The position numbers were made by a program, and so were the translations under genes. Below are positions 15,584 to 15,854 of a stretch of DNA of 64,000 bases, piece by piece. The stretch lies in NCBI GenBank assembly GCA_000146465.1, contig CP001943.1, one strand, 5' to 3'. Every line of letters starts with the position of its first letter. The first letter of the stretch is position 1. The notes below the pieces were generated by a model that was not told the origin of the DNA, did not search any database, and saw only the letters and a program-made list of their open reading frames with translations.

Positions 15584-15854
15584 TTGTTTGGGGTATTCAA
15601 ACAAAGCATTTTTATATTTTGATGCACCAATCACATCAAGTTCTTCTGATGCCATCATCTAACCAGAATTCTTCGGCACCAGACGAAAATGAAGAGATCT
15701 GTAGCCGTCTTAAACATCTGGACTTCAACAGACCCCTTGTGCCGGCCATACACATCGGAGCTCCATGGATACTCCTCTCTGCCTCCATACAATGCACCCA
15801 CACCTTCCTGCCTGTTACAAAGTACAGTTAAGAGACAAAAAATTTTACCCTCAA

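Follow-up and report, generated by a model that had tools for sequence, protein, structure and literature searches.

The closest described system is the set of promoter-proximal signals of Encephalitozoon cuniculi. Peyretaillade et al. (2009, BMC Genomics 10:607; PMC2803860) reported a CCC-like motif, for which GGG can substitute, and an AAATTT-like signal upstream of all ribosomal-protein genes. Before start correction, 1591 of 1996 E. cuniculi genes had a CCC/GGG-like signal, and 364 start codons were corrected by means of the signals (PMC2803860). In the same study, 5' RACE was applied to a gene block (unk-htr-h2a-pap-ubi-rib) that comprises unk and the genes for a histone regulator, H2A, poly(A) polymerase (PAP), ubiquitin, and a ribosomal protein. 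The transcript ends lie 1, 4, 1, 7 or 3, 6, and 2 nt before the respective AUGs (PMC2803860). The 'ubi' end, 6 nt before its AUG, falls immediately after CCCC, and 'rib', with its end 2 nt upstream of the AUG, is the E. cuniculi RPL7A orthologue (PMC2803860). The CCC/GGG signals have been built into the MicroAnnot annotation workflow (PMC10815200). In Encephalitozoon, non-coding RNA genes have CCC/GGG and TATA-like signals as well, whichever polymerase transcribes them (PMC5499648). Transcripts of intracellular-stage E. cuniculi carry some of the shortest 5'UTRs known; in spores the UTRs are longer and the start sites more numerous (PMC3629993).

Exact protein look-ups place our window, the whole 64,000-nt stretch of DNA analysed here, on chromosome II of E. 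intestinalis ATCC 50506 (locus tags Eint_02...). The coding share of the window is 91%, and the median intergenic spacer is about 70-100 nt. For all counts we used the 57 start codons across the whole window, taken from the gene calls of the NCBI assembly of the same species. Deposited proteins were matched for HSP90, RPL9, RPL35A, RPL7A, the DEAD-box helicase, Eint_021070, and the Rna14-like factor, and the starts given for these seven genes in the original prediction are exactly the start codons of the deposited E. intestinalis proteins. The ten sequence strings that it quoted are all present at the implied positions. Eleven starts that appear as GTG or TTG in the open-reading-frame track resolve to an annotated ATG, and correcting starts by the signal is sound. 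The orthologue of the RACE block comprises six genes of this window and includes the ubiquitin-RPL7A spacer. We compared the RPL7A region with syntenic loci from E. cuniculi, E. hellem, E. romaleae, and Ordospora colligata, the HSP90 region with loci from E. cuniculi, E. hellem, and Ordospora, and RPS8 and RPL35A with the published E. cuniculi table (PMC2803860).

The most general signal of the window is a short run of C, occasionally of G, before the start codon. CCC occurs in the interval -15 to -1 of 40 of the 57 annotated starts and of 205 of 2481 other ATGs on both strands (8.3%; odds ratio 26, p=4e-29). Counting CCC or GGG, the signal is found at 47/57 starts vs 20% of other ATGs. The original prediction had named equal motif frequency at random ATGs inside coding sequence as a result that would speak against it; at the other ATGs counted here the frequency is much lower. 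The occurrences of CCC peak sharply at -10 to -6 (32 occurrences), and nearly none lie in -35 to -16; the gap between run and ATG ranges from 0 to 12 nt and is most often 2-6 nt. Upstream in-frame ATGs that had been rejected by annotators are preceded by CCC in only 2 of 17 cases. The claim that a C-run or G-run precedes the starts is thus borne out. The run is not obligatory, because neither CCC nor GGG is present within 15 nt of 10 of the 57 annotated starts. It spans unrelated gene classes and is independent of gene function. An unbiased k-mer enrichment over -45 to -1 returned AAAAATT, AAATTTT, and ACCCT/CCCTA as the top words.

The run is oriented, with CCC in the sense strand exceeding GGG by 40 to 9 (p=9e-6). 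GGG alone shows no enrichment at starts (16% vs 12%). Among the genes that have no CCC, however, GGG is found in 7 of 17 vs a background of 12% (p=0.003). Most short head-to-head spacers contain one run per gene, so that they read GGG...CCC on the + strand. The exchange between the two forms can be followed at Eint_021070, whose orthologues in E. cuniculi and E. hellem show a weak RRP12_HEAT match. These orthologues have AAAAAATT-N2-CCC before the ATG, whereas GGGG abuts the ATG in E. intestinalis; CCC before the orthologue ATG is common to E. cuniculi, E. hellem, and Ordospora (L010 12131-12145, L011 12118-12132). This comparison of sequences indicates a lineage-specific replacement of CCC by GGG in E. 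intestinalis, and, as far as the orthologues tell, CCC and GGG interchange in evolution.

Footprinting was performed on 33 genes by counting the alignment columns that are invariant in all 3-4 Encephalitozoon species. The proximal C/G-run is invariant in 81% of its columns, and so are A/T runs of at least 6 nt. The leader, from the run to the ATG, reaches 53%, and the remaining upstream sequence 30%, close to the 31% of four-fold degenerate codon positions. This difference, 81% vs about 30%, argues that the C/G-run and the A/T runs are under selection and that the rest of the spacer drifts neutrally. Many of the promoter-proximal elements persist in Ordospora.

Further upstream, the average A+T content of the 57 genes peaks at -32 to -24 (75% vs 59%, p=2e-10), where C drops to 9%. 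When the genes are aligned on the C-run instead, the A+T peak appears 17-24 nt ahead of it. In the alignments, TATA-like boxes of genes other than the ribosomal-protein genes begin 27-37 nt from the ATG. About 12 genes of the window have a strong and conserved zone of this kind; elsewhere it is weak or missing. The distance from the start of the TATA-like box to the published 5' end is 27 nt for ubi, 27 nt for h2a, and 24 or 28 nt for pap. RPL24 groups with this class by its ATAGAAATT and GGGG; its ATAGAAATT occupies a TATA-like position, does not abut the run, and is conserved in five species. The U3 snoRNA gene, located by an Rfam match, is preceded by an A/T element and CCC in the same layout, with offsets counted from the Rfam-modelled 5' end at 38813 (Table 1).

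The original prediction had named chaperone genes, next to ribosomal-protein genes, as the strongest carriers of the combined motif. That part did not hold. The claim rested on HSP90, which belongs to the TATA-like class with two elements shared by E. cuniculi and E. hellem, a TATA-like AAAATATTTAAC from -32 and CCC at -12 to -10; the GGG at 47607-47609 that had been quoted for this gene is absent in E. cuniculi and E. hellem. DnaJ has no AAATTT, and we found there only CCC and a GAATATTC palindrome, so a chaperone class was rejected. The palindrome lies in the DnaJ/g420 spacer and is conserved in three species. We also notice a heat-shock-element-like TTCTAGATTTTTC upstream of HSP90, which E. 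cuniculi and E. hellem have kept and which can still be made out in Ordospora. One-mismatch matches to the heat-shock element occur in the window at chance frequency (34 vs 36 expected), and the candidate site is suggested by its position and conservation.

The AAATTT-like tract is specific to a small set of genes. A tract of at least three A followed by at least three T within 30 nt of the ATG is found in 6 of 7 ribosomal-protein genes vs 2 of 50 other genes (Fisher p=5e-6). The positive genes are RPL7A, RPS17, RPL9, RPS8, RPL35A, and ubiquitin-S27a, and the exception is RPL24. An A/T hexamer had been proposed before almost every start; this stands for the ribosomal-protein genes and fails for the others, and an A/T run of at least 6 nt upstream of the C/G-run is missing in 13 of the 57 genes. 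In the ribosomal-protein genes the tract takes the form A5-7T3-4 and lies 0-3 nt from the C-run. The uL5/RPL11 gene, just beyond the window, has an abutting AAATTT tract too. NTF2 is one of the two non-ribosomal genes with an abutting AAATTT, and its spacer, shared with the divergent KH gene, measures 39 nt. Long A>=3T>=3 sites fall no more than 26 nt upstream of a start in 8 of 12 cases.

The composite AAATTT-N0-6-CCC has 8 matches in the window, which are 7 distinct sites vs 7.0 expected in shuffles. Because the count is null against shuffles, a test of placement replaced the test of count. Each of the 7 sites has the sense orientation and immediately precedes a start (p about 1e-15 genome-wide, 2e-8 within intergenic DNA); since its count equals the shuffle expectation, the composite is special in placement only. 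The RPL7A signal shows no change among four Encephalitozoon species and is similar in Ordospora, and its proximal sequence AAAAATTTTACCCTCAA is identical in E. cuniculi L7A (Table 1 of PMC2803860). The E. cuniculi orthologues of RPS8 and RPL35A are entries of the same published table (PMC2803860). For ubiquitin-S27a, a conserved TTATAAG lies just upstream of the AAATTTTTT signal. A CAG-extended regulon variant, which had been suggested from the near-identity of RPS17 and RPS8, is not conserved, and E. cuniculi RPS17 reads gaaggAAAA. As a ribosomal-protein consensus it was rejected, with CAG present in E. intestinalis RPS17 and RPS8 only and absent from the E. cuniculi orthologues; one 3-mer common to two among 7 genes is the chance expectation.

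The interval singled out at the beginning, 15584-15854, is the 271-bp spacer between the divergent genes of a 77-aa ubiquitin and RPL7A, and it contains one instance of the signal at each end. In the five-species alignment, conservation is confined to the two ends, about 50-60 nt on the ubiquitin side and about 30 nt, GTTAAGAG...AAAAAATTTTACCCTCAA, on the RPL7A side. The ubiquitin promoter block hardly varies among four Encephalitozoon species, and most of it is preserved in Ordospora. Its CCAAT-like TGATTGGTG is invariant in the four species and present in Ordospora. A hidden gene or RNA in the spacer was considered and rejected, the middle being unconserved in the five species and free of Rfam matches.

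Table 1. Promoter-proximal signals and neighbouring features, in window coordinates
Feature	Position	Strand	Elements and remarks
DED1	6520-6546	+	conserved TATATAAAC 6520-6528; ATTTTTTTAT-CCC abuts ATG 6547
DnaJ/g420 spacer	9451-9521		GAATATTC palindrome
SPT_ssu-like ORF	10924-11175	+	83 aa
Ubiquitin promoter	15584-15633	-	leader aaacaa 15584-15589; CCCC 15590-15593
Ubiquitin TATA-like box	15608-15620	-	AAAATATAAAAAT
Ubiquitin CCAAT-like element	15625-15633	-	TGATTGGTG, 42-50 nt upstream of ubiquitin ATG
RPL7A signal	15837-15854	+	AAAAAATTTT-A-CCC-TCAA, then ATG 15855
RPS17 intron	17496-17518	-	23 nt, directly after ATG
RPS17 signal	17522-17541	-	AAAAAATTTT-CA-CCCC-AAGA, then ATG 17521
Second AAATTTTT near RPL9	18769-18776		faces divergent 143-aa gene
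RPL9 signal	18802-18817	+	AAAAATTTT-AT-CCC-TA, then ATG 18818
RPL24	19917-19946	-	GGGG 19921-19924 in place of CCC; ATAGAAATT 19938-19946
Divergent pairs with AAATATTT palindrome	26370-26423; 60242-60291		palindrome mid-spacer
tRNA gene	28384-28455	+	Rfam match
RPS8 intron	29037-29070	-	about 34 nt, after ATGG
RPS8 signal	29075-29091	-	AAAAAATTT-G-CCC-TGAA, then ATG 29074
Hypothetical gene	29076-29333	-	85 aa
Hypothetical gene	29492-29764	+	90 aa
RPL35A signal	30254-30273	-	AAAAATTTT-GAT-CCC-TCGTT, then ATG 30253
Rna14-like gene	32806-32824	-	GGGGG-AATTTT-GA-CCCC-GG, then ATG 32805
U3 snoRNA	38630-38813	-	Rfam match
U3 snoRNA upstream	38814-38843	-	ATAAATT 38837-38843 (-30 to -24); CCC 38819-38821 (-8 to -6)
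tRNA gene	41688-41758	-	Rfam match
Ubiquitin-S27a fusion signal	44896-44921	+	AAATTTTTT-AA-CCC and 12-nt spacer, ATG 44922
HSP90 upstream	47562-47626	+	TATA-like AAAATATTTAA 47595-47605; CCC 47615-47617; ATG 47627
HSP90 heat-shock-element-like candidate	47562-47574	+	TTCTAGATTTTTC, 53-65 nt upstream of HSP90 ATG
Eint_021070	49751-49769	+	CCC-AAAAAAATT-GCT-GGGG (GGGG 49766-49769), then ATG
KH/NTF2 divergent spacer	63088-63126		AAATTTTT-CCT-CCCC-G, then NTF2 ATG 63127
TATA-like boxes by gene			DED1 TATATAAAC; histone AAAATATATAAAC; ubiquitin AAAATATAAAAAT; DUF8032 ATAAAATATAAAAA; PDI GTATAAAGG; PAP GATAAAAAG; HSP90 AAAATATTTAAC

Several small features lie close to these signals. The first exon of RPS17 is the initiator codon alone, and that of RPS8 is the initiator codon and one base. 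The 83-aa ORF is orthologous to an annotated SPT_ssu-like small gene of the relatives (E. cuniculi L006 5070-5324, E. hellem L007 5052-5306, Ordospora L009 4594-4878) and has no gene call in the E. intestinalis assembly annotation on which we relied; it has no upstream CCC/GGG, and a conserved CCAAT-like CTGATTGGCTC is present. The hypothetical genes of 85 and 90 aa have neither a Pfam match nor CCC/GGG and may be spurious calls by the published criterion. The 85-aa ORF overlaps the RPS8 promoter, since it ends 1 nt before the RPS8 ATG. E. cuniculi RPL9 (L006 12870) is annotated with 204 aa from an upstream ATG that has no motif. In the other species RPL9 is 183 aa long, and its start is preceded by AAAATTTTATCCC; the E. 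cuniculi start had already been marked as mispredicted in the 2009 paper (PMC2803860). In two divergent pairs, AAATATTT palindromes lie mid-spacer. The g78/Mcl1 palindrome is conserved in four Encephalitozoon species and the SPC25/MCM palindrome, TAAATATTTTA, in Ordospora. These palindromes may act as bidirectional A/T elements that both genes of a pair share.

We consider it very probable that these elements are the promoter-proximal signals of a microsporidian genome with nearly leaderless mRNAs, in an architecture of up to three parts. The enrichment, position, strand bias, conservation, and ribosomal-protein specificity were determined here, and the 5'-end positions are those of the E. cuniculi literature. 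The start sites of E. intestinalis were transferred from E. cuniculi. That the mapped ends are initiation sites, and which proteins would bind the elements, we infer. In the proposed mechanism, the C-triplet in sense orientation (occasionally a G-triplet), ending 0-12 nt before the ATG, would mark the site just upstream of the transcript start, and the C-run would behave as an initiator-region element that fixes this start. Some 17-24 nt before the C-run, at -32 to -24, the TATA-like zone presumably places TBP and the pre-initiation complex at their usual spacing to the start, about 27 bp. In the ribosomal-protein genes and a couple of others, A5-7T3-4 wedged against the C-run would constitute a shared regulon signature.

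Such an arrangement relates a DNA motif to translation. With transcripts that begin 1-7 nt ahead of the AUG, nearly leaderless mRNAs would be translated from the first AUG that they contain, which is why the motif in the DNA can predict where translation begins. These signals do not dictate all transcription, since E. cuniculi spore transcripts are longer and have more start sites (PMC3629993).

The role of the AAATTT tract itself is less certain. Peyretaillade et al. suggested that it is the TATA box of the ribosomal-protein genes, a TBP site working like the adenine-rich and TATA-like elements of other genes, and this is a serious rival which we regard as possible. The tract is A/T-rich, palindromic, and conserved, a TATA-like role was proposed for it in the discovery paper (PMC2803860), and some of the genes have no obvious box further upstream, with GATTTGTG in RPS17 and nothing clear in RPL35A. 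However, judged from the RPL7A orthologue, the tract lies at about -16 to -6 from the start, whereas in ubi, h2a, and pap the box begins 24-28 nt before the mapped end. Moreover, conserved blocks that contain A/T occupy the TATA position in RPL7A (GTTAAGAG), RPL9 (CTTAAATA), RPS8 (AATAAAGAG), ubiquitin-S27a (TTATAAG), and RPL24 (ATAGAAATT). Because the tract is too close to the start for a canonical TATA role, we lean, tentatively, towards a third, regulon-specific element between the TATA-like zone and the C-run that is no equivalent of the TATA box. Extrapolating from the one mapped ribosomal gene, the tract would cover about -16 to -6 from the start site, where the promoter first melts. If so, it could be the site of a factor of the ribosomal-protein regulon, or it could instead be easily opened, making the promoters strong. 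The occasional use of AAATTT by ribosome-related genes, such as the RRP12-like gene, fits either reading.

On the other hand, the C-run might act in RNA, as a 5'-processing site at which long overlapping or polycistronic transcripts are cleaved into monocistronic mRNAs. Multigene and antisense transcripts do occur in E. cuniculi, and the discovery paper files the motifs under '5' transcript processing' (PMC2803860). The mapped E. cuniculi ends may be processed ends, because the linker step of the RACE, as described, depends on reverse transcription and not on a cap (PMC2803860). Nevertheless, GGG replaces CCC at the same position in PAP, RPL24, DUF8032, and Eint_021070, and since GGG can substitute for CCC, an element of double-stranded DNA fits better than an RNA sequence. 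The TATA-like zone at a canonical distance upstream is also against cleavage, and the published ends put the mature 5' end downstream of the run, which leaves the run outside the mRNA (PMC2803860). Processing at the run is therefore improbable.

That the C-run is a Kozak-like context in the mRNA leader, recognised by the ribosome, we consider very unlikely. The motif does lie within about 12 nt of the AUG, and the starts show a purine bias at +4 (41/57 vs 53% of other ATGs, p=0.003). Yet a leader of 1-7 nt mostly excludes the run (PMC2803860), the run can stand anywhere between 0 and 12 nt from the ATG, and the same layout precedes the non-coding U3 gene and other non-coding RNAs (PMC5499648).

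Finally, an artefact of choosing starts by the CCC rule or of intergenic base composition was tested and rejected as scarcely credible: microsporidian pipelines do choose starts by CCC/GGG (PMC10815200) and 11 of the 57 window starts are not the first in-frame ATG, but in the 46 first-ATG genes, on which the count was repeated for this reason, the frequency is unchanged (CCC 31/46; CCC or GGG 38/46), so that circular annotation does not explain the C-run, the positional peak is sharp and strand-asymmetric, a C-rich run within A/T-rich spacers, and cross-species invariance is 81% vs 30%.

Returning to the reading as promoter-proximal signals, the original prediction identified them correctly as the core-promoter and short-leader signal of Encephalitozoon, since the motifs are the same and the genes orthologous (PMC2803860). 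The finding is correct but ordinary, because the feature has been on record since 2009 for orthologous genes of Encephalitozoon and annotation makes routine use of it. With such a signal, translation starts can be fixed and the small genes and introns of microsporidia located more easily, and for the smallest eukaryotic genomes it offers one of the rare ways into how transcription is organised.

The window shares with E. cuniculi the motifs, their positions, and the association with ribosomal-protein genes, and the chromosome II examples L7A, S17, L9, L24, S8, and L35A are orthologous (PMC2803860). The proximal sequence of E. cuniculi L7A is identical to that of the window, and those of S17, S8, and L35A are nearly identical (PMC2803860). 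The difference is that the window comes from a sister species. The upstream region of U3 snoRNA, with ATAAATT at -30 to -24 and CCC at -8 to -6, is the same as described by Belkorchia et al. (2017; PMC5499648), with no substantive difference. In Trachipleistophora hominis, likewise, a C-triplet is found near the start, and some of the genes have a TATA box too (Heinz et al., 2012; PMC3486916). In Nosema ceranae, as cited in PMC2803860 and PMC3486916, CCC and a yeast-type TATA box occur at fixed positions. According to Heinz et al., CCC is the sole canonical motif in the short spacers of E. cuniculi (PMC3486916); unlike this statement, TATA-like boxes are conserved here across five species for about 12 Encephalitozoon genes.

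Beyond microsporidia, ribosomal-protein genes have dedicated elements in other lineages. The HomolD box is that of fission yeast. Metazoan ribosomal-protein genes likewise have a dedicated start-site element, the TCT initiator with TRF2, to the extent that it is cited in PMC8047918. The sequence of the window, A5-7T3-4 next to CCC, is unrelated to both, so the analogy is one of logic and not of membership. With respect to its closest relative, the A/T elements of the window split into a TATA-like zone at -32 to -24 and the ribosomal AAATTT, whereas AAATTT and 'adenine-rich' sequences were taken together as one TATA-like class in E. cuniculi (PMC2803860). This cleaner separation of three elements, with figures for conservation and spacing, is the only increment that the window brings.
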